Source: Actinomycetota bacterium (lineage in GTDB: Bacteria; Actinomycetota; Acidimicrobiia; Acidimicrobiales; CADCSY01). Taken from it: a stretch of DNA of 32,216 nt. Positions 442 through 31,063 of this stretch are shown in pieces. Within the stretch, counting starts at the first letter, position 1. The number at the start of each line of letters is the position of its first letter. The DNA is taken from contig JAHWJR010000006.1 in NCBI GenBank assembly GCA_019348335.1, forward strand, positions 1 to 32,216, written 5' to 3'. Below the pieces are notes generated by a model. The model made no database searches. It was not told where the DNA came from and saw only the letters and a list, made by a program, of their open reading frames with translations. A program made the translations under genes and the position numbers.

Positions 442-1308
442 TCAGGCGGCCCACTCGCCGGCCCGCAACCGGCTGATGCGCTCCTCGGTCGGCGGGTGCG
501 TCCGAAAGAGGTTGGCGAACTGGGCCCGACGGCCGGTCAGCGGGTTGACGATGTAGGCCTGGGCCTGAGCCGGCTGCACGTCCATGGGGATGGCCTGCAC
601 GCCCCGCTCCATCTTCTGGAGGGCCCGGGCGAGGGGCTCGCCCGACCCGACGAGGCGAGCGCCGCTGCGGTCGGCCTCGAACTCCCGGCTCCGGCTCAGC
701 GCCGCCTGGAGCAGGCCGGCGGCCAGCGGCGCCAGCAGCGCGGTGGCGATCAGGGCCAAGGGGTTCTGATCGCGGTCGCGCCCGCCCCCGCCGAAGATGG
801 CGGCGAAGCGGGCCATGAAGGCCAGGTAGGTGATGGCGGTGGCGATGGCGGCCGCAACCGAGCCGATGAGGATGTCGCGGTTGCCGACGTGGCTGATCTC
901 GTGGGCCAGCACGCCCCGCAACTCTTCCCAGTCGCAGATCTCGAGGATGCCCCTCGTCACTGCCACGGCGGCGTGGTGGGGATTGCGCCCGGTGGCGAAG
1001 GCGTTGGGCTGGCGGTCCGGAGTCACGTAGAGCTTGGGCATGGGCATGCCCGCCGCCTGGGTGAGCTCGCGCATGATGGCGAAGTACTGCGGCATCTCCG
1101 CCTCCGACGCCGGCACCGCCCGGGCCGCCTTGATGGCGAGCTTGTCGGAGAACCAGTAGGAGGTCCCCACCATGACCAGGCTCACCCCGAGCATGACGGT
1201 GGCGCCGACGCCGCCCTTGACGGCGCCCCCGATCACCACCAGCAGGCCGGTCAGCCCGGCCAGCAGGACGAAGGTCTTCGCGGTGTTCTTGCTCAACATC
1301 GGTGCCAT
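442..1308 (-). CDS. htpX: Zinc metalloprotease HtpX (peptidase M48)
   Basis: Carries the [10 protein letters not shown] (HExxH) motif, N-terminal TM helices ([17 protein letters not shown]) and overall HtpX-like sequence. The track ORF starts at 1416 but its first 36 residues are Arg/Gly/Pro-rich junk. I chose the internal ATG at 1308 (MAPMLSKNT...). The ATG at 1299 is an alternative, with AGGAG 9 nt upstream. Confidence 0.85.
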
Positions 1309-1382
1309 CTCCTGGCGCCCGCGGGCGGGGCGTCCACTGGGCAACGATACCGGTGCTCGGCCACGCCCCGGGGTGCCGTGCC

Positions 1383-1412
1383 TTGACTTTTCGAGTCCTC
1401 GAAAAGTAGGTT
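1383..1412 (+). promoter_or_regulatory. Putative hppA promoter with a perfect 22-bp palindromic operator in the spacer
   Basis: TTGACT (1383-1388) and TAGGTT (1407-1412, fits TANNNT) are separated by 18 nt. ACTTTTCGAG-TC-CTCGAAAAGT (1386-1407) is a perfect inverted repeat filling the spacer. AAGGAGG lies about 11 nt upstream of the hppA ATG at 1494. The site is also about 80 nt upstream of the divergent htpX. Confidence 0.35.
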
Positions 1413-1493
1413 TCATCGCCTTCCTGACCGCCTCGGCAGCCAGGACAACCCCCGAAACCCCCCAGGAACACCAAGAAGGAGGCAGCGGTCCCG

Positions 1494-3965
<2,472 letters not shown>

Positions 3966-3984
3966 CCGGCGTCCCGTCCCCCAT

Positions 3985-4044
3985 CCCCTCTTCTTTGTCG
4001 GATCGCCCTCCCTCAGAGGGGCTGAGCCGACAAAGAACGAGGGG
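3985..4044. terminator. Long hairpin between convergent hppA and acs (bidirectional terminator candidate)
   Basis: CCCCTCTTCTTTGTCGG (3985-4001) pairs with CCGACAAAGAACGAGGGG (4027-4044), giving 17 bp with one bulge. A nested CCCTC/GAGGG stem sits in the loop. The hairpin lies between the hppA stop (3965) and the acs stop (4047). Confidence 0.55.
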
Positions 4045-4046
4045 GG

Positions 4047-6014
4047 TCAGTCGTCCTGGGGGGCGGCCTCCGCCCGCCGGCGGATCTCGTCGACCACCGA
4101 GGCGTCGGCCAGCGTGGTGGTGTCGCCCAGGTCGCGTCCGTCGGCCACGTCCCGCAGGAGACGGCGCATGATCTTGCCGCTGCGGGTCTTGGGCAGGTCG
4201 TCGGTGAAGATCACGGTCCGGGGCCGGGCAGTGGGCCCGATCTTGGTGGCGACATGGGCCCGCAGCTCCTGACCCAGCTCGTCACCGGGCGTCTGGTCCC
4301 CCTTGCAGGTGACGAAGGCCACGATGCGCTGACCGGTGACCTCGTCCTTGGCCCCCACCACCGCCGCCTCGGCCACGGCGGCGTGGGCCACCAGGGCCGA
4401 CTCCACCTCGGTGGTCGACACGCGGTGGCCGGAGATGTTCATGACGTCGTCGACCCGGCCCAGCAGCCAGAAGTAGCCGTCGTCGTCGACACGGGCGCCG
4501 TCGCCGGCGAAGTACCGACCCTCGAAACGGCTCCAGTACGTGTCGTGGTAGCGCTGGGGGTCGCCGTAGATGCCCCGCAGCATCGACGGCCAGGGCCGGG
4601 TCAGGGTGAGGTAGCCACCGCCCCGCTCGACCGGCTGGCCCCGGTCGTCGACGACCTCGGCGGCGATGCCCGGGAGGGGGAAGGTGGCCGAGCCGGGCTT
4701 GGTCGTGGTGGCGCCGGGCAGGGGCGAGATCATGATGGCGCCGGTCTCGGTCTGCCACCACGTGTCGACCACCGGGCAGCGGTCGCCGCCGATGTGGCGG
4801 CGGTACCACATCCACGCCTCGGGGTTGATGGGCTCGCCCACGCTGCCCAGCACCCGCAGCGACGACAGGTCGTGGGAGGCGGGCTCGGTCGTGCCCCACT
4901 TCATGAAGGTGCGGATGGCGGTGGGCGCGGTGTAGAGGATGGTGACCTTGTAGCGCTCGACGATGTCCCACCACCGGTCGCGCCCGGGGTGGTCCGGGCT
5001 TCCCTCGTACATGACCGAGGTGGCCCCGTTGACCAGGGGCCCGTAGACGATGTAGCTGTGGCCGGTCACCCAGCCGATGTCGGCGGCGCACCAGTACACG
5101 TCGGTGTCGGCGTGGAGGTCGAAGACGTACTTGTGGGTGAAGGCGGCTTGGGTCAGGTAGCCGCCGGTGGTGTGCATGATCCCCTTGGGACTGGCCGTGG
5201 TGCCCGAGGTGTAGAGCAGGTAGAGCAGGTCCTCGGCCTCCATGACCTCGGCGGCGCACTCGGTCGACGCCCCGGCCATGACGTCGTGGTACCAGTGGTC
5301 CCGCCCGGCAGCCATGGCCACCTCGTCACCGGTGCGGCGCACCACCACCACGTGCTCGATGGAGGGCGTGTCCTCCAGGGCGGCGTCGGCGCTGGCCTTC
5401 AGCGGCACCGCCTTGCCCCGCCGCCACCCGCCGTCGGCGGTGATCAGCACCTTGGCCTGGGCATCGACGATCCGGCCCCGCAACGACTCGGCGGAGAAGC
5501 CCCCGAAGACCACCGAGTGGGCGGCGCCCACCCGGGCGCAGGCCAGCATGGCCACGGGGAGCTCGGGGATCATCGGCATGTAGATGGCCACGCGGTCGCC
5601 CTTGGCCACCCCGAGGTCGCGCAGCACGTTGGCGAAGCGGCACACCTCGGCGTGGAGCTCGCGGTAGGTGATGGTGCGGGTGTCGCCCGGCTCGCCCTCC
5701 CAGTGGAAGGCCACCTTGTCGCCTCGCCCGGCCTCGACGTGACGGTCGAGGCAGTTCTCGGAGGCGTTGAGCTGGCCGCCGACGAACCACCGGGCGTAGG
5801 GCAGGTCCCACTCCAGGACCGTGTCCCACTGCCTTCGCCACGAGAGCAGGTCGGCGGCCTGGCGGGCCCAGAAGCCCTCGTGGTCCCGCGCCGCCTCGTC
5901 GTGGAGCTCGCTCCCCCGGACCAGGGCGGAGGCCCGGAACTCCTCGCTCGGCGGGAACGAGCGGTCCTCCAGGCCGTAGACCTCGATGGCAGGGTTCTCC
6001 GTCGGCTCGGTCAT
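4047..6014 (-). CDS. acs: Acetyl-CoA synthetase (AMP-forming)
   Basis: [15 protein letters not shown]..., then [41 protein letters not shown] and [16 protein letters not shown]. Length is 655 aa. Only the C-terminal part of the 1152-aa track ORF 4047..7505 is real; the ATG at 6014 is in frame with it. Confidence 0.95.
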
Positions 6015-6091
6015 GGCGCGAGAGTACCGCCGGGGCCCTGCTCGTTCCGCTGGCTGGGCGGCGGCGGCCCGGGGCCGGCGCCGGCTACCGG

Positions 6092-7537
6092 CTACCGGCG
6101 GGTGAGCAGCTGGTCGGCGGGGGCGAAGTCGTCGGTGAGAGCACGGGCGCCGGCGACGAAGGCGTCGACGTCCTCGCCGGTGAGCACCACGCCGTCCTCG
6201 GGCGGGATGTCGTCCGGCGTGAGGGCGAGCGGGGCGGCGGAGGCCACCAGCACGTGGTTGGCGGGGCCGCTGCTCGCGCCTGGAGGCGGAGCGATGACCG
6301 CCACGTTGGCGAACACCTCGGCGAGGGTGGCGGTCTCGGCCCGGACCAGCCGGCGCTCGCCGCCGTCGATGACGTTGACCAGGTAGATCCCCTCCGGGCG
6401 CAGCGCCCGGGCCAGCTCCTCGGCCACCTCCACGGTGGCCAGGTGCCAGGGCACCGACAGGCTCCCGAAGGCGTCGCCGACGGCCACGTCGTAGGAGTCG
6501 GCGGCCAGTCGAGCCAGGGCGGTGCGGGCGTCGCCCACCTCGACGCGCAGCCCGGGCCCCTGTTCCAGCCCGAGTTGCTCCTCGGCCAGCGCCACCAGAG
6601 CAGCGTCGAGCTCGAGCACCAGGCTGGTCGAGCCGGGTCGGGTGGCGGCCAGGTACCGGGGGAAGCTGAAGCCGCCGCCTCCGAGGTGGAGGGCGTCGAC
6701 GGGCCGGGCCGGCGGCACCTCGGCGGCCAGGGCGGCGGCGAACAGCCGCACATAGCGGAACTCGAGGTGGGTGGGGTCGTCGAGATCGACGTAGCTGTGC
6801 CGCAGGTTGTCGAGCAGCAGCACCCGCCCGGAGGGACGGGCCGGGTCGGCCTGCACCTGCACGCAGTAGTAGGTGGTGTGCTCCTGGCAGGGCCCGGGGA
6901 CGGCGGCCGCCACCCCGCCCAGCGCCAAGGTCCCCGCCGCCACCCCGCCCAGGGGCCGGTGGGGGCCGCTGCGCCACCACAGCACCAGGCCGGCGCCGAC
7001 CAGGGCGGCGCCCAGGCCGATCACCAACGGCCGGGTGGGCACGGCGGCCACGAGCACGAAGCCGGTCACGAAGGTGCCCACCAGCGCACCGGCGGTGCCG
7101 GCTGCCGAGAGCCCGCCCACCACCGAGCCGGTCTCGTCCAGGCTGGCCAGGCGCAGCTTGGCCGCCATGGGCGCCACCGCGCTGAGCACGGCGGCCGGGG
7201 CGAAGAAGGCGCCGGCGGCCAGGATCACGACGGCTGCCGGGCCACCGCCGGCCACAGTCGGGCCCACCGCCGTCACCACCGGGAGCGATGCCAGCGCCAG
7301 GGCGCCGCCGGCCACGACCGTGGGGCCGAGCAGCCGGCGGGGGTCGCGACGGTCCGCGAGACGCCCGCCGGCGGCGCTGCCCAGGGCGATGCCGGCCAGC
7401 ACGGTGCCGATGACCCCGGTGAAGGTCTCGATCGACACGCCCACGTAGGGCGCCACCAGCCGGCCGGCCAGGATCTCCAGCACCAGCACCGCCGCCGAGG
7501 TGCAAAAGACCAGCGTGGCCGCCGCCCGGGTGGTCAT
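6092..7537 (-). CDS. Fused polytopic membrane domain / spermidine synthase-like protein
   Basis: Starts [27 protein letters not shown]... The N-terminal half has multiple hydrophobic helices. The C-terminal half has a class I methyltransferase/spermidine-synthase-like fold ([45 protein letters not shown]). The ATG at 7537 is in frame with track ORF 6092..8158. Confidence 0.8.
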
Positions 7538-7546
7538 CAATCCGCC

Positions 7547-7597
7547 CTTCTGGCGGCGGGAACGGTGCGGTAACCGCCCCCTTTGCACCGCCAGAAG
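7547..7597 (-). promoter_or_regulatory. Intercistronic stem-loop overlapping the SD of the spermidine-synthase-like gene
   Basis: A perfect 10-bp inverted repeat: CTTCTGGCGG (7547-7556) and CCGCCAGAAG (7588-7597), with a 31-nt loop. On the minus-strand RNA the downstream arm reads CCGCCAGAAG followed by GGCGGATTG-ATG, so it contains the GAAGG SD. Confidence 0.4.
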
Positions 7598-7604
7598 CGT
7601 GGAG

Positions 7605-8729
7605 TCACGGTCCGGCCACCCACTCCAGCACGCGGAACGCCCCCAGCCCGGTGGGGTCGCACAGGGCCTGGCCCTCCCCCACCCGGCTGCGGGCGGCCAG
7701 GGCAGCCAGGTCGCCCACGTGTGCCCGCTCGTGCCACTCGGCGCGGGCCGCCTCGACCAGCTGGTCGAGGCCGTGCCGGCGCAGCCAGTCGGCCTGGGAC
7801 AGGTCGCCAGCCGGGGGGCCGAGGCGGGCGGCGAGCTGGTCGACGCCGACCTCACAGGTGATGTCCTGGGAGCCGGGCGCTTCGAGGGGGGAACCGCCCG
7901 GCCCGTGGGCGCGGTAGGTGCGCACCCATTCCCGCCACGGGCGAGCAGCCAGAGCCGGCGTGGTGCTGGCGAAGTCGACGACCACGACCCGGCCCCGGTC
8001 GAGCACCGCCCGCGCCCGCCGCAACCAGCCGGCGGCGGAGCCCTGGAGCGGGATGCGGCTGCCGGCGGCGGCGGTGGGAACGAGCTGCTCGGCCACGGCG
8101 GCGGCGTCCGAGGGCGCCGAGGCCAGGACCTCGACGGGCGCACCGTCGTCGCCCACACCGACGAGGACCTCGGCCCAGTCGCCGTCCCGGCGCTCGAGCA
8201 GCCGGAACGGCAGGTTGTCGAGAAGCTCGTTGGCCACGACCACGCCGGTCACCTTCAGCGCCGGCAGGTCGGACAGCACGGTGACGATCGGTCCCTCTCC
8301 GGGGACGAAGGGCGACGCCGCGTCGGGATCACCTCCGCCGGCGGCCCCGAACACGTTGGCCGGCGGCTCGACGGGCAGTCGCTCCGCCGCTCGCTCGCGC
8401 AGGGCCGGCGAGTGCTCCACGCACACGTAGCGCAGGGCACCTCCGCAGGACGGACCGGCGTCGAGGATCGACCGGGCCAGGGCACCACGGCCGGCCCCGC
8501 CTTCCACCACCACGAACGGGTCGGGCCGGCCCAGCCGCTGCCACTCGGCGTCGATGGCCCGGGCCACCACCGCCCCGAACAGCGGACCCACCTCGGGGCT
8601 GGTGAGGAAGTCGGCGCGGCGCCCGGCGCCCCGGCCGGTGGAGAAGAACCCGTCCTCGCCATAGAGGGCGTCGTCGACGAACTCGTCGAAGCGGACGGGG
8701 CCGAACCGCCGGATGCGCTCGACCAGCAC
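7605..8729 (-). CDS. SAM-dependent methyltransferase, MidA/NDUFAF7 family (DUF185, COG1565)
   Basis: FDEFVDDALYGEDGFF, ADFLTSPEVGPLFG, FVVVEGGAGRGALARSIL and YVCVEHSPALRE match the family signature (TSPE...FGE, VE-G-G-G-L, VE-SP-L). The GTG at 8729 lies 2 nt after the nuoN stop (TAG-GG-GTG) and is in frame with track ORF 7605..9026, whose upstream part is Arg-rich junk overlapping nuoN. Confidence 0.8.
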   Translation of the reverse strand: MLVERIRRFGPVRFDEFVDDALYGEDGFFSTGRGAGRRADFLTSPEVGPLFGAVVARAIDAEWQRLGRPDPFVVVEGGAGRGALARSILDAGPSCGGALRYVCVEHSPALRERAAERLPVEPPANVFGAAGGGDPDAASPFVPGEGPIVTVLSDLPALKVTGVVVANELLDNLPFRLLERRDGDWAEVLVGVGDDGAPVEVLASAPSDAAAVAEQLVPTAAAGSRIPLQGSAAGWLRRARAVLDRGRVVVVDFASTTPALAARPWREWVRTYRAHGPGGSPLEAPGSQDITCEVGVDQLAARLGPPAGDLSQADWLRRHGLDQLVEAARAEWHERAHVGDLAALAARSRVGEGQALCDPTGLGAFRVLEWVAGP

Positions 8730-8731
8730 CC

Positions 8732-10234
8732 CTACGGGAGGGCGCCGAACAACGCCACGTCGCCGAGCCGGGCGGCGAGGTTGGGAAAGAACCCGAACGC
8801 CACGGTGGCCACCGCGCAGAGGGCAAGCGACGCGGTCAGCGCCGCCGGCACCTGCACCCGGGTGGTGTCGCCGTCGGGCACGGGGTCCATGAACATCTGC
8901 CGGGCCACCGAGGCGTAGTAGAAGAGCGCGATCACCGAGTTCACCGCGGCGACCACGGCCAGGGCGACGGCGGCGCCCGTGCCGGCGTCGAGCAGTGACT
9001 TGAACACGACGAACTTTGCGTACCACCCCCCCAGGGGCGGGATGCCGGCGAGGGCGAACAAGAAGACGGCCATCAACACGGCCAGCCCCGGGGCGTAGTC
9101 GAACAGGCCCCCGTAGGAGCCGATCTCGCCTGATCGGGTCTTGCGGGCCACGGCCATGACGACGGCGAAGGCGCCCAGGTTCATGGCCGCGTAGATGATC
9201 AGGTAGGTCACCACCGCCTCGGTGGCGTTGGCGATGCCGCCCCGCTCAGCGGGGATCGAGGCGGCCACGGCCAACGGCGCCAGCATGAACCCGGCCTGGG
9301 CCACCGAGGAGTAGGCCAACAGGCGCACGATGTTGGTCTGGCGCAGGGCGATGAGGTTGCCCACCGTCATGGTCAGGGCTGCGAGCACCCAGAACAACGG
9401 CGCCCACACGTCGTCCTGGCCGAGGAAGGCGATGAACACCAGCTGGAGCAGGGCGACGAAGCCGGCGGCCTTGGACGCCACCGACAAGAAGGCGGTGATC
9501 GGCGTGGGGGCACCCTGGTACGTGTCGGGCGCCCAGGTGTGGAAGGGCACCGCCGAGACCTTGAAGCCGAAGCCCACCACCACGAAGACGATGCCGACGG
9601 TCACCACCGGCACGGTCGACGAACCCCCTGCCAACGCATCGCCGATCTCGCTGAGCACGGTGGACCCGGTGACGCCGAACACCAGCGACATCCCGTAGAG
9701 CATCACCGCCGAGGCGAACACCCCGAGCAGGTAGTACTTGAGCGACGCCTCGTTGCCCCGCAGGTCGCGCTTGCGCCAGCCGGCCAGCAGGTAGGCCGGG
9801 ATGGAGAGCAGCTCGAGGGCCACGAAGATGCTGATCAGGTCGCGAGCCGAGGCCATCACCGTCATCCCCAGCAACGACGAGAGCAGCAGGAAGTAGTACT
9901 CGCCCTCGTAGTAGTCGCCCTCGGCCACGTAGTCGGTGCTGATGAGCACGGTCACGTAGCCGGCGACGAGGAACAGGCCCTTGAGGACCAGGGCGAAGTC
10001 GTCGACGACGTAGGCGCCGTCGAACAGGCTGCGGTCGCCGCCGGCGACGGCCAGGGTCAGCACCGGCACCAGCGAGGCCAGCAGCCCGATGCCGGCGACG
10101 GTCGAGGTGGCCCAGCGGCCCCGCTCCTCGAACACCAGGTCGACGAAGAGCAGCACCACCAGCACCAGCACCAGGACGATCTCGGGCGCGAAGGCGTGGA
10201 AGTCGACCGAGGGAGAGCGGAACAGCGTCTCCAC
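8732..10234 (-). CDS. nuoN: NADH-quinone oxidoreductase subunit N
   Basis: A 500-aa polytopic protein with the antiporter-like motif FKVSAVPFHTWAPDTYQGAPTPITAFLSVASKAAGF. It sits last in the nuo order, 4 nt after the nuoM stop. Confidence 0.95.
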   Translation of the reverse strand: METLFRSPSVDFHAFAPEIVLVLVLVVLLFVDLVFEERGRWATSTVAGIGLLASLVPVLTLAVAGGDRSLFDGAYVVDDFALVLKGLFLVAGYVTVLISTDYVAEGDYYEGEYYFLLLSSLLGMTVMASARDLISIFVALELLSIPAYLLAGWRKRDLRGNEASLKYYLLGVFASAVMLYGMSLVFGVTGSTVLSEIGDALAGGSSTVPVVTVGIVFVVVGFGFKVSAVPFHTWAPDTYQGAPTPITAFLSVASKAAGFVALLQLVFIAFLGQDDVWAPLFWVLAALTMTVGNLIALRQTNIVRLLAYSSVAQAGFMLAPLAVAASIPAERGGIANATEAVVTYLIIYAAMNLGAFAVVMAVARKTRSGEIGSYGGLFDYAPGLAVLMAVFLFALAGIPPLGGWYAKFVVFKSLLDAGTGAAVALAVVAAVNSVIALFYYASVARQMFMDPVPDGDTTRVQVPAALTASLALCAVATVAFGFFPNLAARLGDVALFGALP

Positions 10235-10238
10235 CGCG

Positions 10239-11765
10239 CTACCCCCCCGCCCCGAAGGACGACAAGGCGTTGCCCACGGCGCCGTCGGTCAGCCCGAAGA
10301 GCAGGCCGGGGAAGATGCCGAGCACGAGGATGAGCACGAGCATCGGCACCCAGGCGACGTATTCCGGCCAATGCATGTCGGCGATGGGCGCCTCGGCGAA
10401 CTCGGGCTTGGGGGTGCCGAAGGCGGCCCGCTGCAGCATCCACAGGAGGTAGCCGGCGGCGAGGACGGTGCCCAGGGCAGCGATCACCATGTAGGTCCGG
10501 AACAGCGCCTCGGACAGGCCCTCCGCCGGGCTGTAGGCGGCCAGGATGGCGGGGAACTCACCCCAGAAGCCGGCGAGGCCCGGAAGGCCCAGCGAGGCCA
10601 TGGCGCAGAACCCGAGGATCCAGCCCATGCGGGGGGCCTGGAGGAGCAGGCCACCGAGGCGGGACAGCTCGAGGGTGTGAAAGCGGTCCTTCACCGAACC
10701 GGCGACGAAGAACAGCATCCCGGTGATGAGCCCGTGGGCCACCATGCCGAACACGGCGGCGTTGATGCCGAAGTCGGTGAGCGTGGCGATGCCCAGCATC
10801 ACGAAGCCCATGTGGGCCACCGAGGAGAAGGCGATGAGCCGCTTCATGTCGCTCTGGGCGAGGCAGCCGAGGGCGCCGTAGATGATGCCGACCACCGCCA
10901 GGCCGCCGATCACCGGCGCCCAGGCCATGGCCGCCTCGGGCAGGATCGGGATGGCGATGCGGATGAACCCGTAGGTGCCGAGCTTCAGCAGGATGGCGGC
11001 CAGGATGACCGACCCCTGGGTCGGGGCCTGGGTGTGGGCGTCCGGGAGCCACGTGTGGAACGGGAACATGGGCACCTTGATGGCGAAGCCCATGAACAGG
11101 CCCCCGAAGATGATCAGCTGCGTCGAGCGGGGGATGTTGTCGGCCGCCACCGCCACCAACTCCTGGATGGAGAAGGTCTGACCGCCCGAGAAGTACAGGG
11201 CCAGGAAGCTGAGGATCATCAGGGCCGAGCCGAACAGGGTGAACAGGAAGAACTTGATGGCGGCGTACTGGCGCTGCTCGCCGCCCCACACGCCGATCAT
11301 GAAGTACATCGGCAGGAGCACGACCTCGAAGAACACGAAGAACAGGATCAGGTCCTGGGCCACGAAGGTGCCGTTCATGCCGGTTTCGAGCACCAGGATG
11401 AGGATGAGGAACGCCTTGGGGTTGTGCGGCTCAGGGAAGTGGTTCCAGCTGTAGACCACGACCAGCACGCACACGAACATCGACAGCACCAGCAGGGGCA
11501 GGGAGATGCCGTCCACCCCGAGCAGGTAGCGACTGTTGATCACGTCGATCCACGGCGCGTCCACCCGGAACTGGAGTTGGTCGCTGGCGCCGTAGTCGAA
11601 GCGGGCCAGGATCAGCATTCCGACGGCGAAGGTGGCCAACGTGGCGCCCAGGGCCATGAGCTTGTGGGCGGTCTCGTTCTCCCTGGGCACGAGCAGCATG
11701 GCCGCGGCGACGACCAGGGGCACGAACACCGCCAGGCTGAGAGCCGAATCGTCGAGGGATTCCAT
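10239..11765 (-). CDS. nuoM: NADH-quinone oxidoreductase subunit M
   Basis: 508 aa, with FFVFFEVVLLPMYFMIGVWGG, KVPMFPFHTWLPDAHTQAPTQGSVILAAILLKLGTYGF and VAHMGFVMLG. Confidence 0.95.
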   Translation of the reverse strand: MESLDDSALSLAVFVPLVVAAAMLLVPRENETAHKLMALGATLATFAVGMLILARFDYGASDQLQFRVDAPWIDVINSRYLLGVDGISLPLLVLSMFVCVLVVVYSWNHFPEPHNPKAFLILILVLETGMNGTFVAQDLILFFVFFEVVLLPMYFMIGVWGGEQRQYAAIKFFLFTLFGSALMILSFLALYFSGGQTFSIQELVAVAADNIPRSTQLIIFGGLFMGFAIKVPMFPFHTWLPDAHTQAPTQGSVILAAILLKLGTYGFIRIAIPILPEAAMAWAPVIGGLAVVGIIYGALGCLAQSDMKRLIAFSSVAHMGFVMLGIATLTDFGINAAVFGMVAHGLITGMLFFVAGSVKDRFHTLELSRLGGLLLQAPRMGWILGFCAMASLGLPGLAGFWGEFPAILAAYSPAEGLSEALFRTYMVIAALGTVLAAGYLLWMLQRAAFGTPKPEFAEAPIADMHWPEYVAWVPMLVLILVLGIFPGLLFGLTDGAVGNALSSFGAGG

Positions 11766-11789: not shown

Positions 11790-13907
11790 TTAGACGAAGA
11801 TGATGAGGCCGAGCGCCAGCACCGTGGCGGCCCCGAACAACAGGGCGGCGTACTGCTGGACCCGCCCGGTCTGGATGGTGCGGAGGATGCCGCCGAAGCC
11901 CTCGGCGCCGAAGCCGGCGCCGTTGACCGCGCCGTCGACCACCGCCTGGTCGATGTGGCGGTAGGTCCAGTCGCCGGAGCGCCGGGCGGCGATGCCCACG
12001 GCGTTGACCACGCCGTCGATCACCTTCTGGTTGAACCAGTAGGCGGCCCGGGCGATGGCCCCCTTGACGGACCCGACGATGACCCCGGTGTAGAGGTGGT
12101 CGAGGTAGTACTTGTTGGTAAGCAGCGTGTAGCCGGATCGCGCCAGGGCGTTGCGGCGGGTGAGACCCCGCGGGAGGCGCCGCTCGAAGAACAGCAGGTA
12201 GGCGAAGGCGATGGCCGCCAGGACCACCACGGTGGAGACCACCGCGGGGAAGACCTCGAAGCTGTGATGCTCGACCCCGGCGAGCAGGAACACCCGGTTC
12301 TCGGTGATCTCGAAGAACTTCTCGACCCCGGGAGCGTTGAGCAGGCCGGCGCCCACCGAGAACACGGCCAGGACCATCAGCGGGATGGTGATGGGACGAG
12401 GTGACTCGTGGGGGTGCGCGTGCCCCCGGTACTCGCCGAAGAAGGTCAGGTAGACGCAGCGGGTCATGTAGGCGGCGGTGAGGAAGGCGCCCACGATGCC
12501 CACCAGCTCGAACACGGGGTAGCCGTTCTCGGCGGCGCCGACGAGGATCTCGTCCTTGGACCAGAAGCCGGCCAGCGGGAACAGCCCGGCCAGGGCCACC
12601 GAGCCGATGAGGAAGGTGACGAACGTCGTCGGCATGTACTTCCGCAGCCCGCCCATGTCGGCCTTCATGTCGAAGCTGTGGACGGCGTGGCTGACCGAGC
12701 CGGCCCCGAGGAACAGCAGGCCCTTGAAGAAGGCGTGGGTGAACAGGTGGAAGATGCCGGCGGTCCACGCACCCACGCCGAGTGCCATGACCATGTAGCC
12801 GAGCTGGCTCACCGTGGAGTAGGCCAGCACCTTCTTGATGTCGTCCTGCACGAAGGCCAGGGCGGCGGCGATGAGCACGGTGATCCCGCCGACGACGGCG
12901 ATGGGGTTGACCCCGCCGGCGCCGATGTCGAACGCCTCCCAGAACACCCCGTAGAGGCGGGCGACGAGGTAGACGCCGGCGACGACCATGGTGGCGGCAT
13001 GGATGAGCGCCGACACCGGCGTGGGACCGGCCATGGCGTCGGGGAGCCACGTGTGCAACGGGAACTGGGCTGACTTGCCGATCACCCCGATGAAGAGCCC
13101 GACGGCGCCGACCACCAGGGCGGTGTGGCCGATGGCCCCGGTCAGGGCCCGCTCGTTGATCAAGGCGATGTCGAAGGTCTGGCCGGCGGCGAAGAACAGC
13201 GTGACGATGCCGACCAGCAGGCCGACGTCGCCCGTACGGGTGGTGAGGAACGCCTTCATGGCGGCGTTGGAGTTCTCCGCCTTCTCCCACCAGTGCCCGA
13301 TCAACATGAAGCTGCACAGCCCCATGAGCTCCCAGCCGAACAGGGCCTGGAGCGTGCTGCTGGAGACCACCAGCAGCAGCATCCCGGTGGTGAACAGCGA
13401 CAGGGCGGCGAAGAAGTAGGTGAAGCGCACGTCACCGTGCATGTAGTTGGTGGAGAAGACGTGCACCAGCAGGGAGATGAGGGTGACGGTGAAGAGCATC
13501 ACCACCGTCAGCCCGTCGACGGCCGTGCCCGCGGTCACCTCGACGTCGCCGATGGTGAACCAGGTGACGTTGCGCTCGACCGCCGAGCGGATGGGGGTCT
13601 CCTCCCCGTGCCCACCGGTCTCCACCGCGGTCGCCACGACCTGGCGGTCCTCGCCTCGTTGCCCGCCCGCAGCCCCGTGTTCCTCTTCCTCCTCGCCGTG
13701 GACCTCCTCGCTCGTCCCGTGCGGCACCACCTCGGTGGCCGGACGGTCGACCCACTGGACGACGGCCACGCACGACAGCACGAAGGCGAGGCCCAGGGCG
13801 CCGATGCCGATCTCGGCACCGTGCCCCGGCAGGCGCTTGCCGAAGAAGAGGATGAGCCAGAAGGAGACGAAGGTGAGGGTGGGGATGACCCACGCGTTCT
13901 CGAGCAC
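11790..13907 (-). CDS. nuoL: NADH-quinone oxidoreductase subunit L
   Basis: GWELMGLCSFMLIGHWW, KSAQFPLHTWLPDAMAGPTPVSALIHAATMVVAGVYL, and a C-terminal lateral-helix region (YYLDHLY...). I chose the GTG at 13907 (VLENAWVIPTL...), 2 nt after the nuoK stop and in frame with track ORF 11790..14246. Confidence 0.9.
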   Translation of the reverse strand: MLENAWVIPTLTFVSFWLILFFGKRLPGHGAEIGIGALGLAFVLSCVAVVQWVDRPATEVVPHGTSEEVHGEEEEEHGAAGGQRGEDRQVVATAVETGGHGEETPIRSAVERNVTWFTIGDVEVTAGTAVDGLTVVMLFTVTLISLLVHVFSTNYMHGDVRFTYFFAALSLFTTGMLLLVVSSSTLQALFGWELMGLCSFMLIGHWWEKAENSNAAMKAFLTTRTGDVGLLVGIVTLFFAAGQTFDIALINERALTGAIGHTALVVGAVGLFIGVIGKSAQFPLHTWLPDAMAGPTPVSALIHAATMVVAGVYLVARLYGVFWEAFDIGAGGVNPIAVVGGITVLIAAALAFVQDDIKKVLAYSTVSQLGYMVMALGVGAWTAGIFHLFTHAFFKGLLFLGAGSVSHAVHSFDMKADMGGLRKYMPTTFVTFLIGSVALAGLFPLAGFWSKDEILVGAAENGYPVFELVGIVGAFLTAAYMTRCVYLTFFGEYRGHAHPHESPRPITIPLMVLAVFSVGAGLLNAPGVEKFFEITENRVFLLAGVEHHSFEVFPAVVSTVVVLAAIAFAYLLFFERRLPRGLTRRNALARSGYTLLTNKYYLDHLYTGVIVGSVKGAIARAAYWFNQKVIDGVVNAVGIAARRSGDWTYRHIDQAVVDGAVNGAGFGAEGFGGILRTIQTGRVQQYAALLFGAATVLALGLIIFV

Positions 13908-13909
13908 GG

Positions 13910-14218
13910 TCAGCCCTTCATGAGGTCGACCTCGTCGAGGTCGACGCTCGCCCGGTTGCGGTAGATGAGCAGGACGATGGCGAGCCCCACGCCGACCTCG
14001 GCGGCGGCGATGGTGATGACGAACAGGGCGAACACCTGCCCGGTCACCGCCCCGGAGGCGCCCTGGAGCGCCCCGAGGGCCACCAGGTTGATGTTGACGG
14101 CGTTCAGGATGAGCTCGATGGACATCAGCACCAGGACGCCGTTGCGCCGGGCCAGCACGCCGTAGACGCCGATGGAGAACAGCACCGCCCCCAGCACGAG
14201 GAACTGGTTGACCAGCAT
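13910..14218 (-). CDS. nuoK: NADH-quinone oxidoreductase subunit K
   Basis: 102 aa with three TM helices: MLVNQFLVLGAVLFSIGVYGVLARRNGVLVLMSIELILNAVNINLV...AAAEVGVGLAIVL. GGAGGAGGGAG lies upstream. Confidence 0.95.
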   Translation of the reverse strand: MLVNQFLVLGAVLFSIGVYGVLARRNGVLVLMSIELILNAVNINLVALGALQGASGAVTGQVFALFVITIAAAEVGVGLAIVLLIYRNRASVDLDEVDLMKG

Positions 14219-14273: not shown

Positions 14274-14792
14274 TCACTCCCTCCTCGCCAGGACGATGGC
14301 TCCCACCAGTGCGGCGAGCAGGAGCACGGAGACGACCTCGAAGGGGACCAGGTAGGTGGAGAAGATGGCGTCGCCCACCGCGCCGGTGCCCCGTTCGGCG
14401 GTCAACGCCTCCCGGTCCAGGCCCTCGAGCCGGGGCAGGCGCTCGTCGCCGAAGGCCTCGACCAGGACGTAGGACAGCACCCCGAACAGGAAGAGGCCGG
14501 TGATGCCCGCCAGCCAGCGCTGGTCGTTGTCGAGGCCCGACTCGCGACCGAGCGTCGGGCGGGTCAGCATGATCCCGAACAGGAACAGCACCACGATGGC
14601 CCCGATGTAGATCAGGACCTGCACCGCGGCCAGGAACTCGGCGGCCAGCAGGACGTACAGCGCTCCCACGCTTCCCAGGACCGCCACCAGGTAGAGCGCG
14701 GCGTGCACCACGTTGCGGGTGGTGACCACCCGCAGGGCGGCGAGCACGGCCACCACGGCGAGGACGGCGAACACCAGGTTCTGCGCGGCCAT
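14274..14792 (-). CDS. nuoJ: NADH-quinone oxidoreductase subunit J
   Basis: 172 aa, with RNVVHAALYLVAVLGSVGALYVLLAAEFLAAVQVLIYIGAIVVLFLFGIML. Its position between nuoI and nuoK fits. Confidence 0.9.
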   Translation of the reverse strand: MAAQNLVFAVLAVVAVLAALRVVTTRNVVHAALYLVAVLGSVGALYVLLAAEFLAAVQVLIYIGAIVVLFLFGIMLTRPTLGRESGLDNDQRWLAGITGLFLFGVLSYVLVEAFGDERLPRLEGLDREALTAERGTGAVGDAIFSTYLVPFEVVSVLLLAALVGAIVLARRE

Positions 14793-14798
14793 GGGCGA

Positions 14799-15275
14799 TT
14801 ACCTCTTGCCCGCCTGGGCGCCCGCCTCGAGCGGCTCGGGTTCGGGCACGCCGTCCATCCACTCGCCGAGACGCTCCTTGTCGTGGAGCAGATCGGCGAT
14901 GCGGGGCTCGGAGTACTCGTACTCGGGACTCCAGAACAGCGCGTCGAAGGGGCAGACCTCCACGCAGATCCCGCAGTACATGCACAGTGAGTAGTCGATG
15001 TCGAAGCGGTCGAGCAGCTGGACGGTGCGGGGCTTGCCCCCCGGGCGCCGGGGCGGTGCCTTGGTCTTGTGGCCCTCGATGTAGATGCACCAGTCGGGGC
15101 ACTGGCGGGCACACAGCATGCAGACCGTGCAGTTCTCCTCCTTGAGGGCGATCACGCCCCGGGCCCGCGTGGGGGGCGCCTCCTTGACTCGCGGGTACTG
15201 CGTGGTGACCGCCGGCTTCAGCATGGTCCGCAGGGTCACGCCGAGGCCCTTCATCAGGCCGGGTAGCTCTGGCAC
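14799..15275 (-). CDS. nuoI: NADH-quinone oxidoreductase subunit I (2x[4Fe-4S] ferredoxin-type)
   Basis: Two CxxCxxCxxxCP motifs ([12 protein letters not shown] and [12 protein letters not shown]). The GTG at 15275 is preceded by GGAAGGAGG with a 6-nt spacer and follows the nuoH stop. It is in frame with track ORF 14799..15920. Confidence 0.9.
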
Positions 15276-15289
15276 GAGTGACCTCCTTC

Positions 15290-16321
15290 CTAGAAGAGAA
15301 CCTTGAACACGCCGGTGGCCAGGATGTTGACCAGGGCGAGGGGGATGAGGAACTTCCAGGCGAACGTCTGGAGCTGGTCCTCCCGCAGGCGAGGGTAGGT
15401 GAAGCGGATCCAGAAGATCAGGAAGGCGACGAGCATGGTCTTGACGAACAGCACCGCGGGCCCGACCAGGTTGGAGATCAGCCCGCCGTCGACGTCGAGG
15501 CCGGGGACGTACCAACCGCCCAGGAACATGGTGGCGGCCAGGGCCGAGAAGGCGAAGGCGGCCCCGAACTCGCCGAGGTAGAAGAACAGGAACTGGAGGC
15601 CGCTGTACTCGACCTGGTAACCGGCCACCAGCTCGGACTCGGCGATGGGCATGTCGAACGGCGGCTGGGTGAGCTCGGCCTGGGTCGCCACCAGGAACAG
15701 GGCGAAGCCGATGAACTGGGTGAAGATGAAGGGCTGGCCGATGAGGCCGACCCCGAAGATGGCGCCCTCGGCTTGGGCCCGCACGATGCCCTGCAGGCTC
15801 AGCTCGCCCGACTGGATGACCACGCCGACCACGGCGAGCACCAGGGGCAACTCGTAGGCGATGAGCTGGCCGGCCGCCCGCAGGCCGCCCATGAGGGCGT
15901 ACTTGTTGGCCGAGGCCCAACCCGCCATGAGGATGCCCAGCACCGAGATGGAGGACACGGCCAGAGCGAAGAAGATGCCGATGTCGAGGTCTTCGGCCAC
16001 CACGTTGGGCCCGGCGGGGATGACGACGAACAGCAGGAACGTCGACAACAGGACCACGACCGGCGCCAGGAAGAACACCCTGCGGTCGGCCCGCTCGGGC
16101 GCCAGGAGCTCCTTCTGCACGAACTTGGCCCCGTCGGCCAGCAGCTGGAGGGCGCCGTGGGGCCCAGCCTCCATGGGACCGAGCCGGCTCTGCATGTGGG
16201 CCATCATCTTGAACAGGAAGGTCTGCACGATGACGGCCGTGGCCGTGGGCACGATCACCATCACGGCCAGGACCTTGATGACCAGCAGCTGCCAGTACGC
16301 CAACTCGACCGCGAGGATCAC
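15290..16321 (-). CDS. nuoH: NADH-quinone oxidoreductase subunit H
   Basis: 343 aa, with [48 protein letters not shown] and [14 protein letters not shown]. It has a GTG start 28 nt after the nuoD stop. Confidence 0.95.
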
Positions 16322-16349: not shown

Positions 16350-17522
16350 TCATCGGTCGATGTCCCCGAGGATGAAGTAGAGGGAGGCGAGGATGGTGAT
16401 CACGTCGGGAACGTAGACGCCCTTCATGACCCAGGGCACGATGGAGATGTTGTTGAACGAGGGCGTGCGGATCTTGACCCGGAAGGGGCCGAGGTCGCCC
16501 TTGCTGACGACGTAGTAGCCCATCTCGCCCAGCGGGTTCTCGGTGGATACCCAGGCCTCGCCCGCCGGCACCTTGATGATGCGGGGCACCTTGGCCATGA
16601 TCGGGCCCGACGGGAGCCCGTCGAGCAGCTGGTCGACGATGTGCGCCGCCTCTCGCGTCTCCTGGAGACGCACCCAGTACCGGGCGAAGCTGTCGCCGTC
16701 GGGGTGGGTCCACACCTTCCAGTCCACCTCCGACCACGCCAGCGGGTTGGGGCTGTCGCGGCGAAGGTCCCAGTCGACCCCGGACGCCCGGAGGTTGGCT
16801 CCTGACAGCCCGTAGCTGAGCGCGATCTCGGGAGGGATGACCCCGATGCCCCTCGCCCTGGTCTCGAAGATCTCGTTGCCGAGGAGCAGCGTCTCCATCT
16901 CGTCGCAGAAGCGGCGCACCTTGTCCATGGCCGATTTGGTCTCGGCCACCCATCCCTTGGGCAGGTCCTCCTTCAGGCCGCCGATGCGGTCGTAGTTGGG
17001 ATGGAACCGGCCGCCCGTGGCCGCCTCGATCTGGTTGAGCACGTGCTCCCGGTCACGGAAGGCGTAGAAGACGGCGGTGATGGCCCCGAGCTGCACCCCC
17101 ATGTCGCCCAGGAAAAGGGTGATGTTGGCGATGCGCGACATCTCGAACAGCACGGTGCGGATCCACTGCGCCCGGGGTGGGGCCTCGATCTCCATGAGCT
17201 GCTCGGCGGCGAGGATGAAGGGCACCTCGTTGGCGAAGCTGCCGAGCCAGTCGATGCGGTTGATCAGCGTGGTGACCTGGGGGTAGGTGCGGACCTCGAC
17301 CAACTTCTCGTAACCACGGTGCATGTAGCCCATGACCGGCTCGGCGGAGATGACCTGCTCACCGTCGAGGCGGGTGATGATCCGTAGGGTGCCGTGGGTG
17401 GCCGGGTGCTGCGGCCCGATGTTCAGGGTCATCCCGTCGGTCTCCAGCTCGACGTTGACCCGGGCGTCGGCGGCCTGGCCGGTGACGTACGCCCGCTGCT
17501 GGTTCTGGGGGACGGCGCTCAT
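16350..17522 (-). CDS. nuoD: NADH-quinone oxidoreductase subunit D (49-kDa/NDUFS2 homolog)
   Basis: 390 aa, with LNIGPQHPATHGTLRI, GYMHRGYEKLVE, and a C-terminal ILASLYFILGDIDR. Confidence 0.95.
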   Translation of the reverse strand: MSAVPQNQQRAYVTGQAADARVNVELETDGMTLNIGPQHPATHGTLRIITRLDGEQVISAEPVMGYMHRGYEKLVEVRTYPQVTTLINRIDWLGSFANEVPFILAAEQLMEIEAPPRAQWIRTVLFEMSRIANITLFLGDMGVQLGAITAVFYAFRDREHVLNQIEAATGGRFHPNYDRIGGLKEDLPKGWVAETKSAMDKVRRFCDEMETLLLGNEIFETRARGIGVIPPEIALSYGLSGANLRASGVDWDLRRDSPNPLAWSEVDWKVWTHPDGDSFARYWVRLQETREAAHIVDQLLDGLPSGPIMAKVPRIIKVPAGEAWVSTENPLGEMGYYVVSKGDLGPFRVKIRTPSFNNISIVPWVMKGVYVPDVITILASLYFILGDIDR

Positions 17523-17536
17523 GCGGACATCGTCCT

Positions 17537-18685
17537 TCAGGACCCGTCACCTTCGCCGGGCATGGCCTCGACGTCGACCAACCCCGGCCAGGGCTTGACC
17601 TCCCGGGACAGCAGGGGGAAGTCCTTGCGCAGGGGGTTCCCCTCGAACGCGCCCGGCAGGTAGAGGTGGATGAGGTTGGGGTGGCCGTCGAAGGTGATGC
17701 CGTACATCTCCCACGCCTCGCGCTCGTGCCAGTCGGCCCCGGCGTACACCCCCACCAGCGACGGGGCCCGCAGGTCGTCGTCGGGCAGGTCGGCCTTGAG
17801 GATCAGGCCCACCGAGGTGACCGGCGCCATCAGCCGGGCGAACAGCTGGAAGCGGGTCTCGCCGCCGGCGTAGCCGTGCTCGATGGCAGCGGGTGACTCC
17901 TCATCACCACCCTGCTCGGCATCGTCGGCGTTCTCGTCACCGGCCGCCGGCTCCTCACTGCGACCGTAGGGCGACGGCATCCAGTCGATGGCGGAGAGGA
18001 AGCAGAAGTAGGTCAGGCCGAGCTCGTCTCGGCACACCTCGGCCGTTCGGCGCCACGCGTCGACGCTCACCCGGGCCCACAGCTCGCGCCCGTGGGCCAC
18101 GTGGGTCTGCTGCAGGTCGTCACCCAGCGCCGACCTCAGCGTGTCGAGCAGGCGGCCGGCGGCCTCGTCGACCTCGGGGGTCTCGGCGCTGTCCACCACC
18201 TCGGCCACCTCGTCGGCCCGAGCGGCCTTGTCGGCCCGGGACCGCTCCGCCGCCGCGCCCTCGCGCACGGCGGCGGTGGGCGTGGGCGGGGGTTGCTCGG
18301 GGACCACCGCGGAATCGGTGCCCGACGCCGGAGCACCTGCGGCCGGGGCCGTCGCCGCCGGCGCCGTGGTGTCGGGTGAGCCGGCGTCCCCGCCGGGGAC
18401 CTGGGCCACGTCGTCGGCTGCGGGGGAGGCCGAGCCGCCCCGCTCCTGGCCCTGGGAAGGGGTCTGGTCACTCGACAGCTCGCCCGGAGCACCCGGCGCC
18501 GGCACCGGCTCGTCGTCCGCCGCCGTGGTCCCCTCCCCCGGCGCCGCCGATGACCCCGTCGGCTGGTTCGAGTCGGCCGGGTTGGCGATCTCGCTCTGGA
18601 GCCCCGGGTCGTCGATGTCGTCGGCCGACGGGGCCTGTCCCTCGGCGTCCGGCTCCTCCCGACCGTCCGGATCAACCGACGACAA
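17537..18685 (-). CDS. nuoC: NADH-quinone oxidoreductase subunit C with a long disordered N-terminal extension
   Basis: The core is [12 protein letters not shown] ... [29 protein letters not shown] ... PLRKDFPL. The TTG start at 18685 overlaps the nuoB end by 14 nt. The first 170 or so residues are Asp/Pro/Ala-rich but keep high third-position GC. Internal GTG starts cannot be excluded. Confidence 0.8.
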
Positions 18686-19172
18686 TGGGCTCCCCTCTCC
18701 AGCGCTCGGACATGTCCTCGTTGCGGATGCGCTCCTGGAGCAGCACGATGCCCTCCAGCAACGCCTCCGGGCGAGGCGGGCAGCCGGGAACGTAGACGTC
18801 GACGGGCACGATCTGGTCGACCCCCTTGGTGACCGAGTAGGAGTCCCAATAGGGGCCGCCGCAGTTGGCGCAGCTGCCCATGGAGATCACGTACTTGGGT
18901 TCGGGCATCTGCTCGTAGAGCCGGCGGATGGCCGGGGCCATCTTGTCGGTCACCGTGCCCGAGATCACCACCAGGTCGGCTTGGCGGGGGCTGACGGGAA
19001 AGGGGATGACGCCCAGGCGCATGACGTCGTAGCGGGGGGAGCCGAACGTCGCGCCCATCTCGATGGCGCAGCAGGCGAGGCCCCACTGGTAGACCCACAG
19101 CGAGTAGCTGCGGCTGAGGTTGAGCAGATGGCTGAGAGGCTTGGGTATCTTCGCCCGTTCGACTAGACCCAC
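18672..19172 (-). CDS. nuoB: NADH-quinone oxidoreductase subunit B
   Basis: [25 protein letters not shown] and [11 protein letters not shown] (ligands of cluster N2). I chose the GTG at 19172 ([10 protein letters not shown]...), which overlaps the nuoA end by 10 nt and is in frame with track ORF 18672..19442. Confidence 0.9.
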
Positions 19173-19528
19173 CGCAGGACTCCCTTCCGCCAGGCGTACA
19201 CCAGACCGAGGGCGAGTATGACGATGAAGATGCCCATCTCCACCAAGCCGAACAGGCCGTAGCTCTCCAGCCGCAGGGCCCACGGGAAGATGAACACCGC
19301 CTCCACGTCGAACAGCACGAAGAGCAGGGCGAAGATGTAATAGCGAACCTGGCTCTGACCGAACCCGGGGCCCACGGGGTCGACGCCACTCTCGTAGGCG
19401 ATCGACTTCTGGGCGGTGGGACGGGAGGGCCGGATCAGCCACCCGGCGCCCAGCATGAGGGCGACCAGCAGGCCCGCAGCTCCGGCGAAGACGGCCACCG
19501 TGAGGTAGGCACGCAGGAACTCGGACAC
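19163..19528 (-). CDS. nuoA: NADH-quinone oxidoreductase subunit A
   Basis: 121 aa with three TM helices: YESGVDPVG...[23 protein letters not shown]. It has a GTG start and is the first gene of the operon. Confidence 0.9.
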
Positions 19529-19596: not shown

Positions 19597-20142
19597 GTGC
19601 CCCCGGCCGCACCCAACGCCACCGACCTGGGCGGCCTGGTGGTGCCCGACGCCCGGACCGGTGAGCCCGTCGACCTCGGCGCCACGCCCGCCTTCGGCGT
19701 GCTGACGATCATCCGCCACCGCTACTGACTGCCCTGCCAGCAGCACCTGGTCGAGGTGCGGAACCGCCGGGAAGCGCTCGAGGCACTCGGGGCCACGGCG
19801 GTGGCCGTGGGCTTCAGCCCGCCCGACGCCCTGGCCCACCTGGCCGACCACCTCGAGTGGCCCTGGCCCTTCCTGGCCGACACCGAGCGGACGGTCTACG
19901 CCCGGCTGGGACTGCCCCGCGCCTCGCTGCGGGACGTCTACTCCACCGGGACGATGCAGCGGTACCGGCAGGCCGCGGCCGCCGGCGAGCCCGTCCACGC
20001 CCCGGTCGAGGACGCTCGCCAGCTGGGGGGCGACGCCGTGGTGCGGGCCGGGCGGGTGGTGCGGCTGTTCCGGCCGGCAACCCCCGACGACCGCCCGCCG
20101 GTGGACGTCCTCGTCGGCGCCGTGGCCGAGGCCGCCCGGTAG
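19597..20142 (+). CDS. Thioredoxin-fold AhpC/TSA (PRXL2-like) redoxin with an in-frame TGA at the first Cys of CxxC: candidate selenoprotein, or a pseudogene
   Basis: Track ORF 19756..20142 continues in the same frame upstream through one TGA (19726-19728) to the GTG at 19597, the first start codon after the stop at 19501. Own translation: (M)PPAAPNATDLGGLVVPDARTGEPVDLGATPAFGVLTIIRHRY[TGA]LPCQQHLVEVRNRREALEALGATAVAVGFSPP...WPWPFLADTERTVYARLGL... The family motif is xRHxGCxxC, so the TGA falls on the first Cys. Confidence 0.5.
19743..19759 (+). promoter_or_regulatory. Short hairpin downstream of the in-frame TGA (possible bacterial SECIS apex)
   Basis: GCACC (19743-19747), loop UGGUCGA, then GGUGC (19755-19759). 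The loop starts about 20 nt after the UGA and contains GGU. The stem is only 5 bp plus one further C-G pair beyond a mismatch. Confidence 0.2.
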
Positions 20143-20153
20143 CCTCCCTGGCC

Positions 20154-30454: not shown

Positions 30455-31063
30455 TCAGGTCTCTTGGCTCTCGTCGTACCAGGAGACGGTGACGCTCAGG
30501 TAGGACTCGCCGGTGCTCAGGGCCCGGGCGTCGATGCTGAGCGAGGGCCCATCCTCGGTCGGCCGCTGCGAACCGGTGGTCGCCATGGAGCCCCCCGGAC
30601 TGTTGTCTCTGCCGTCGGCGTTGCGGGCAGCCCACTCGGCAAGACGCGAGGCGTCGAGGCCCCACTGGCGGGCCAGCTCGGCAGCCCGCCGGGCGGCGTC
30701 ACGCACCGGCTCCCGCGGGTAGTTGACAACGATGTAGTCCAACTGCCCATGGTCGGCGCTGGTGTCGAAGTCGAACGGCCGGCTGGGTATGGCGGTGATG
30801 GGGCCCTCCGGGGGCGGCTCGATGACCACCCCGGCAGGGAGCAGGATCTTCAGCTCGCCCGGCTCGGCCTCGACGTGGTACAGGTCGAGGTCGTTGTCCT
30901 CGGGCCAGCCCACGTCCTCGATGCGATGGCTGTTGCGCAGGTCCCACACCGGCTTCACCGGCACCTCCTTCCTCTGGTCGGTCTGTTCGCCCTCCTCGAA
31001 GGAGATCGTGCACCCGGCCACCAGCGCGGCCAGTAGCAGGGCCACGACCAGGAGCCGCTTCAT
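30455..31063 (-). CDS. Lipoprotein of unknown function
   Basis: MKRLLVVALLLAALVAGCTISFEEGEQ... is a signal peptide plus lipobox (LVAGC). Length is 202 aa. The ATG at 31063 overlaps the upstream gene's stop (ATGA) and is in frame with track ORF 30455..32188, whose upstream part is junk. Confidence 0.7.
   Translation of the reverse strand: MKRLLVVALLLAALVAGCTISFEEGEQTDQRKEVPVKPVWDLRNSHRIEDVGWPEDNDLDLYHVEAEPGELKILLPAGVVIEPPPEGPITAIPSRPFDFDTSADHGQLDYIVVNYPREPVRDAARRAAELARQWGLDASRLAEWAARNADGRDNSPGGSMATTGSQRPTEDGPSLSIDARALSTGESYLSVTVSWYDESQET

Follow-up and report, generated by a model that had tools for sequence, protein, structure and literature searches.

A MidA/NDUFAF7-family methyltransferase gene follows nuoN of the NuoEFG-less complex I-like operon in sampled Acidimicrobiia

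Introduction

The Pfam family PF02636 (Methyltransf_28, formerly DUF185) corresponds to the MidA/NDUFAF7/COG1565 family of methyltransferases. Complex I assembly requires NDUFAF7 at an early step, and the enzyme symmetrically dimethylates Arg85 of NDUFS2 (PMC3829151; reviewed in PMC9006661). The arginine of the HRGxE motif lies 3.7 Å from the iron-sulfur cluster N2; its mutation removes N2, and the residue is needed for N2 stability (PMC8042128). In Paracoccus denitrificans the equivalent residue, Nqo4 Arg65, is a symmetric dimethylarginine (sDMA) (Carroll et al. 2013, PMC3750175). The equivalent arginine is also modified in Pichia pastoris, is unmodified in E. coli and is replaced by threonine in Thermus thermophilus (PMC3750175). 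The function of MidA in prokaryotes has been described as ‘only inferred in silico’ (PMC12455994).

The closest described gene arrangement is that of Ca. Actinomarina, where an 11-subunit complex I operon, NDUFAF7 and htpX were reported together (Bulzu et al., bioRxiv 10.1101/2021.02.01.429150). The published cluster reads afuABC – heliorhodopsin – nuoABCDHIJKLMN – NDUFAF7 (K18164/PF02636) – htpX – pspE (10.1101/2021.02.01.429150). That study of 2021 dealt with heliorhodopsin neighbourhoods, and the methyltransferase was mentioned in passing and for one order (10.1101/2021.02.01.429150). In the literature that we searched, no other paper was found that ties PF02636 to a nuo operon. Here we analyze a 32,216-nt stretch of DNA from an Acidimicrobiales genome, referred to below as the window, in which a methyltransferase gene of this family (MT) stands directly behind a nuo operon, and compare it with related loci.

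Results

The window carries eleven nuo genes on the reverse strand in the order nuoABCDHIJKLMN, and the MT gene follows them as the twelfth cistron. The operon begins with nuoA (19163–19528), while genes on the forward strand start at position 19756, beyond nuoA. Next comes nuoB (18672–19172), which encodes the carrier of cluster N2; the CC...C...C ligands are kept and its start codon is uncertain. It is followed by nuoC (17537–18685), by nuoD (16350–17522), which encodes the predicted MT substrate, by nuoH (15290–16321), by nuoI for the 2x[4Fe-4S] ferredoxin-like subunit (14799–15254), by nuoJ (14274–14792) and by nuoK (13910–14218). The last three nuo genes are nuoL (11790–13913; NF005141, 591 bits), the exact start of which is uncertain, nuoM (10239–11765) and, after a gap of 4 nt, nuoN (8732–10234; TIGR01770, 396.8 bits, cut-off 332.6). 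By position, nuoC, nuoI and nuoJ correspond to the PF00329, Fer4 and PF00499 genes, respectively, of the long metagenome contig L010. Neighbouring genes of the operon overlap by at most 14 nt or are at most 55 nt apart (–14 to +55 nt).

The original prediction had described this operon as nuoA-N, which is wrong. In the window nuoD is followed after only 28 nt by nuoH, and neither nuoE, nuoF nor nuoG was found between them. The operon is of the 11-subunit, NuoEFG-less complex I-like type, without the NADH-oxidising module. We take this set of 11 genes to be the ‘ancestral’ complex I-like operon of the Moparthi and Hagerhall type.

Two of the subunits have unusual sequences. NuoC carries a low-complexity N-terminal extension of about 170 amino acids that is rich in Ala, Pro, Asp and Glu, and NuoL contains an acidic stretch inserted close to its N-terminus (the profile match begins at residue 112 of the protein versus position 59 of the profile). 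Either of these might serve the NuoEFG-less complex as a docking element specific to the lineage. The window contains a further set of antiporter-like genes on the reverse strand (span 24585–29595), namely NuoL2 (27643–29595), NuoM2 (26111–27646) and NuoN2 (24585–26114), which score 729, 608 and 418 bits with the NCBIfam NuoL, NuoM and NuoN models. No nuoA–K genes lie beside this trio, and upstream of NuoL2 nothing was noticed besides a lipoprotein-like ORF at about 30455–31050. The trio may be surplus antiporter modules or what is left of a second complex.

The arrangement in the window resembles that in Ca. Actinomarina, which belongs to the same class and to another order of Acidimicrobiia. 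In both, a NuoEFG-less 11-gene operon leads directly into a PF02636 gene, and htpX comes at some distance behind it. The surroundings differ: heliorhodopsin is absent from the window, and nuoA is not immediately preceded by an ABC transporter, as two forward-strand genes (19756–21776) separate nuoA from the ABC genes, unlike in Ca. Actinomarina. On the other side of the operon, an MFS/spermidine-synthase fusion, acs and an H+-pyrophosphatase gene stand between MT and htpX (Peptidase_M48; 442–1416, reverse strand). In many Acidimicrobiia loci htpX is found 3–9 kb downstream of MT in the same orientation. This synteny, as in Actinomarinales, suggests a larger conserved neighbourhood.

The MT gene spans positions 7605–8729 on the reverse strand and encodes 374 amino acids of a putative SAM-dependent methyltransferase. 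As had been proposed, it starts with a GTG located 2 nt past the nuoN stop: the nuoN TAG (8734–8732) is followed by GG (8731–8730) and by the GTG of MT (8729–8727). The reading frame is uninterrupted from there to the TGA at 7607–7605 (374 codons), and the closest homologues are likewise 374 amino acids long with a query coverage of 100%. Between 8729 and 8900 there is no in-frame ATG, GTG or TTG besides GTG 8729, which rules out an alternative upstream start overlapping nuoN. A forward-strand ORF of 472 amino acids at 7500–8918 was rejected as a shadow ORF of high-GC DNA; the Pfam match lies in the reverse-strand frame only, and the GC3 of that frame is 0.92.

A consensus scan of the nuoN–MT junction detected no promoter- or terminator-like site, where the promoter scan used the sigma-70 consensus and is of limited value in a high-GC actinobacterium. 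Two terminator-like matches, against 1.1 expected by chance, fell inside coding regions and were discarded. The common strand, the gap of 2 nt and the conserved adjacency support the earlier placement of MT in the nuo transcription unit, with which it would be co-transcribed. No Shine-Dalgarno sequence was found at a usable spacing before the MT start. Given this and the 2-nt gap, ribosomes that terminate at the nuoN stop probably reinitiate on MT, and the two genes would then be translationally coupled.

Downstream of the MT stop lies a spacer of 67 nt with a stable hairpin (7547–7597, reverse strand; dG –46.1 kcal/mol, z –4.7). None of 200 shuffled sequences folded equally well. The hairpin lacks a U-tract, and an Rfam scan of positions 5800–10400, which include it, gave no match. 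The closest relative (L001) has a homologous hairpin. In L002, L012 and L018 the next gene directly adjoins MT and the hairpin is missing, which rules out that it is a conserved operon terminator. It is possible that the hairpin is a terminator without U-tract or a stabiliser of the mRNA end; it may mark the transcript end in this genome as a local, not conserved, feature. The gene directly 3′ of MT is the MFS/spermidine-synthase fusion (6092–7537, reverse strand; NF037959, 319.8 bits), which occurs only in the closest relatives (L001–L003, L011, L012, L018 and L034). Elsewhere acs directly follows MT.

To place MT within known families we compared it with Pfam and with solved structures. MT matches PF02636 with an E-value of 2.5e-35 and 122.6 bits (cut-off 23.3) and has no other match; likewise, all 19 tested members of its subfamily match PF02636 and nothing besides. 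A search of the solved structures with the single MT sequence returned 4f3n, 1zkd and Dictyostelium MidA (5ztz). A subfamily profile built from the 19 members matched the same three PDB entries with E-values of 2.4e-42 for 4f3n, 1.7e-33 for 5ztz and 7e-31 for 1zkd. The alignments are near full-length, with profile positions 7–337 of 375 on MidA 23–363 and positions 5–330 on 4f3n 63–379. The AlphaFold2 model of MT (pLDDT 92.9, pTM 0.91) was compared with the PDB by Foldseek, where ranks 1–6 were taken by 4g67, 4f3n, 5ztz, 5zu0 and two chains of 1zkd with TM-scores of 0.73–0.78. The next matches were generic class I methyltransferases with TM-scores of about 0.3. Pfam, the profile search against the PDB and the predicted fold all agree with the original prediction, and the membership of MT in the MidA/NDUFAF7 family is confirmed by sequence and predicted fold.

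The sequence motifs of the family are kept as well. The SAM-binding GxGxG motif reads E-G-G-A-G-R-G (residues 76–82), and MT further contains ANELLDNLP at 165–173, D252 and QDIT at 288–291. The GxGxG, ANE..D..P, DY and (Q/A)D(I/L)T motifs are common to MidA, 1zkd, 4f3n and MT. We used family-invariant columns in place of published catalytic-residue assignments, defined over MidA, 1zkd, 4f3n, an Acidobacteriota homologue (L009) and the Acidimicrobiia sequences. All 22 of these columns are intact in MT and across its subfamily. A variable loop at about residues 118–147 of MT is specific to the subfamily.

The family is large, with 7502 clusters at E ≤ 1e-3 in a representative library of 1.84 billion proteins, and only 315 of these clusters reach E ≤ 1e-30 with the window MT. 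Its identity is 22–23% to MidA and 1zkd (about 22% for MidA) and about 32% to 4F3N/4G67. In a neighbour-joining tree of 31 sequences the Acidimicrobiia MTs form their own split in 200 of 200 bootstraps, and the alpha-proteobacterial and dictyostelid/mitochondrial sequences are separated from them as another split with the same support (200/200). Within this tree MT does not group with the alpha-proteobacterial/mitochondrial NDUFAF7 clade. Judged from its sequence, MT is a member of the family that lies outside the mitochondrial lineage and is not an NDUFAF7 orthologue in the strict sense.

To assess how widespread the linkage is, we examined related loci in three scans with one genome per GTDB species. 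The scans returned only genomes of the class Acidimicrobiia, a few of them in evidently mislabelled bins. After removal of duplicates 136 distinct loci were left, 122 of them with at least 1.6 kb of upstream DNA. In all 122 Acidimicrobiia loci nuoN lies upstream of MT on the same strand, with MT identities to the window protein of 38–95%. The adjacency noticed in the window is therefore not unique to its genome, and its recurrence in 122/122 distinct related loci puts it far beyond chance. The gap between the two genes has a median of 34 nt and is at most 300 nt in 111 loci. Since the remaining 11 loci have 0.3–3.5 kb between nuoN and MT, tight coupling is not universal.

The operon type is shared, too. 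nuoD and nuoH are directly adjacent in 73 of the 75 loci that reach that far. In the genomes represented by L032/L136 and by L086/L114, each pair being one contig, an insertion of 1.3–1.7 kb separates nuoD from nuoH, which is too short for nuoEFG. Pfam gene tables of two long metagenome contigs, L010 and L243, confirmed the layout of the 11-gene operon (nuo11) followed by MT and contained no 24-kDa, 51-kDa or 75-kDa subunits. L243 encodes the most divergent member of the subfamily (P0259), and here, too, MT stands behind nuoN; this contig also carries a DUF4178-PspA-PspAA cassette (2557–4205), which is inserted within the operon and separates nuoI from nuoJ. The same layout was seen in a cultured organism, Aquihabitans daechungensis DSM 27986 (L128). 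Five loci (L012, L013, L081, L116 and L161) come from species-representative MAGs labelled as Rubrobacter, Acidobacteria, Burkholderiales, Bordetella parapertussis and Bifidobacterium. Their nuo11–MT contigs are typical of Acidimicrobiia, and they were probably mis-binned or the MAGs mislabelled.

As a control, alpha-proteobacterial loci were collected with MidA and the R. palustris protein (1zkd) as queries. None of 80 alpha-proteobacterial loci had a nuo gene within 8 kb of MidA. One beta/gamma-like locus had no nuo neighbour either, as the gene adjoins folB/folK and an SDR gene, and one Acidobacteriota locus was also without a nuo neighbour. The phyla sampled were thus Actinomycetota, Pseudomonadota (mainly alpha-proteobacteria, with the one beta/gamma-like locus) and, with one locus, Acidobacteriota; a broad family profile search for other phyla returned almost only alpha-proteobacteria and dictyostelids. 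Because 122/122 loci are linked versus 0/80 in alpha-proteobacteria, the linkage is a fixed trait of the sampled Acidimicrobiia subfamily, and it is absent from the clade ancestral to the mitochondrial enzyme.

Finally, we looked at the presumed substrate. The 3′ end of nuoD lies 7.6 kb ahead of the MT start codon, and the arginine pointed out in the original prediction is present: the protein reads MGYMHRGYEKL, with H68-R69-G70-Y71-E72 and the Arg69 codon at 17318–17316 (reverse strand). GYMHRGYEK is invariant in 73 of 73 distinct NuoD sequences from MT-linked operons. As E. coli keeps this arginine unmodified, its presence is necessary but not diagnostic, and it is weak evidence when taken alone.

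Discussion

We propose that MT would act as a SAM-dependent protein arginine methyltransferase made from the last cistron of the nuo11 operon. It would methylate Arg69 of NuoD, in the HRGYE motif beside the Fe-S cluster N2 of NuoB, before or during the assembly of the quinone module formed by NuoB, NuoC and NuoD. This would be the same reaction that eukaryotic NDUFAF7/MidA carries out on Arg85 of NDUFS2, at the residue equivalent to Arg65 of Paracoccus Nqo4. Taking family, operon position and the conserved motif together, we consider it fairly likely that Arg69 of NuoD is methylated by MT while the NuoB-C-D module is being assembled; the family and the place in the operon are shown here, the substrate and the type of methylation are inferred.

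The described members of the family differ from MT in several respects. With human NDUFAF7 and Dictyostelium MidA (5ZTZ) it shares the Pfam family, the predicted fold (TM-score 0.78), full-length homology and the SAM motifs, and in each case the partner subunit bears the HRGxE arginine. In contrast to these enzymes, MT belongs to a separate clade at about 22% identity, has no targeting peptide, shares an operon with the gene for its presumed substrate and would serve a complex without the NADH-oxidising module; its activity is predicted. Alpha-proteobacterial MidA, such as R. palustris 1ZKD, is a bacterial member of the same family as MT. There, however, the gene has no nuo gene within 8 kb (0/80), the partner is the canonical NADH-oxidising complex I with 14 core subunits, and modification of the NuoD homologue is proven in P. 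denitrificans (PMC3750175), whereas it is predicted for the window. The best solved match of MT is the COG1565 protein of Burkholderia thailandensis (4F3N/4G67; profile E 2.4e-42, TM-score 0.77–0.78, about 32% identity), and a related beta/gamma-like locus lies beside folB/folK and an SDR gene, not nuo.

With an identity of only about 22% to MidA and a clade of its own, MT could differ in substrate specificity. MT might thus act on the Nuo11 complex and yet have another target, e.g. NuoB, NuoC or NuoI, or yield another methylation state such as monomethylarginine. The subfamily-specific loop at residues ~118–147 would fit such a divergence, as would the 22–23% identity to MidA and 1zkd, and the unusual extensions of NuoC and NuoL could serve as lineage-specific substrates. 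However, the only known substrate of the family is the HRG arginine of NDUFS2/Nqo4 (PMC3829151, PMC3750175), and none of the 73 linked NuoD sequences departs from this motif, so that we regard another target or methylation state as unlikely. Alternatively, MT may owe its place behind nuoN to regulation or to history and have a substrate unrelated to complex I. The unrelated genes acs and htpX are likewise syntenic downstream, and other clades of MidA are unlinked (the 80 alpha-proteobacterial loci, the beta/gamma-like locus and the Acidobacteriota locus). Yet in P. denitrificans Nqo4 is modified although the alpha-proteobacterial homologue is unlinked (PMC3750175), and lack of linkage elsewhere is therefore no argument for another substrate. 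In addition, the same-strand order of nuoN and MT is kept class-wide, down to 38% MT identity, and we think it quite improbable that the placement is unrelated to complex I.

NDUFAF7 is counted among the assembly factors and makes direct contact with NDUFS2 (PMC9006661), which could also be read to mean that MT is mainly a non-catalytic assembly chaperone of NuoD, with a methyltransferase activity that is dispensable or lost. This is hard to reconcile with the GxGxG SAM motif and the 22 invariant columns, all of them intact in MT and its subfamily, and with the observation that methyltransferase-deficient MidA fails to rescue the Dictyostelium knockout (PMC9006661); we give it hardly any weight. 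Methylation of NuoD Arg69 by MT thus stays our preferred reading.

What does the locus say about the age of this modification? The original prediction held that an operonic link in a bacterium implies a modification that predates mitochondria. That the modification itself is older had already been shown by Arg65 of P. denitrificans Nqo4 (PMC3750175), and, as its title indicates, the 2018 PDB entry 5ZTZ apparently made the pre-mitochondrial point on structural grounds. The operon link alone, on the other hand, cannot date the partnership, because the Acidimicrobiia MTs form a clade apart from the alpha-proteobacterial/mitochondrial one. The gene arrangement was described before in Actinomarinales and the modification was proven before in Paracoccus, and the gain made here is incremental. 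New is that all sampled Acidimicrobiia share the linkage and that it is specific to the NuoEFG-less enzyme, that it is absent from alpha-proteobacterial loci, and that the linked MTs form their own clade.

A specialist would not be surprised by the arrangement of nuo genes and MT. It is useful because the prokaryotic function of MidA has so far been ‘only inferred in silico’ (PMC12455994), and the class-wide position of MT as the last cistron is the strongest evidence from genomic context so far for a role of MidA in prokaryotes. The link to an 11-subunit enzyme suggests that tuning or stabilising the N2 site by a nearby arginine matters also without the NADH module. Whether arginine methylation by the operon-encoded MidA is an obligatory step in the maturation of the nuo11 enzyme throughout Acidimicrobiia is, in our estimate, an evenly balanced question. 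If it is, the partnership of MidA and NuoD would be tied to the quinone/N2 module and not to the NADH-oxidising complex I, and it would extend beyond the ‘proteobacterial origin’ that was proposed from alpha-proteobacterial and mitochondrial data, in breadth and possibly also in age.
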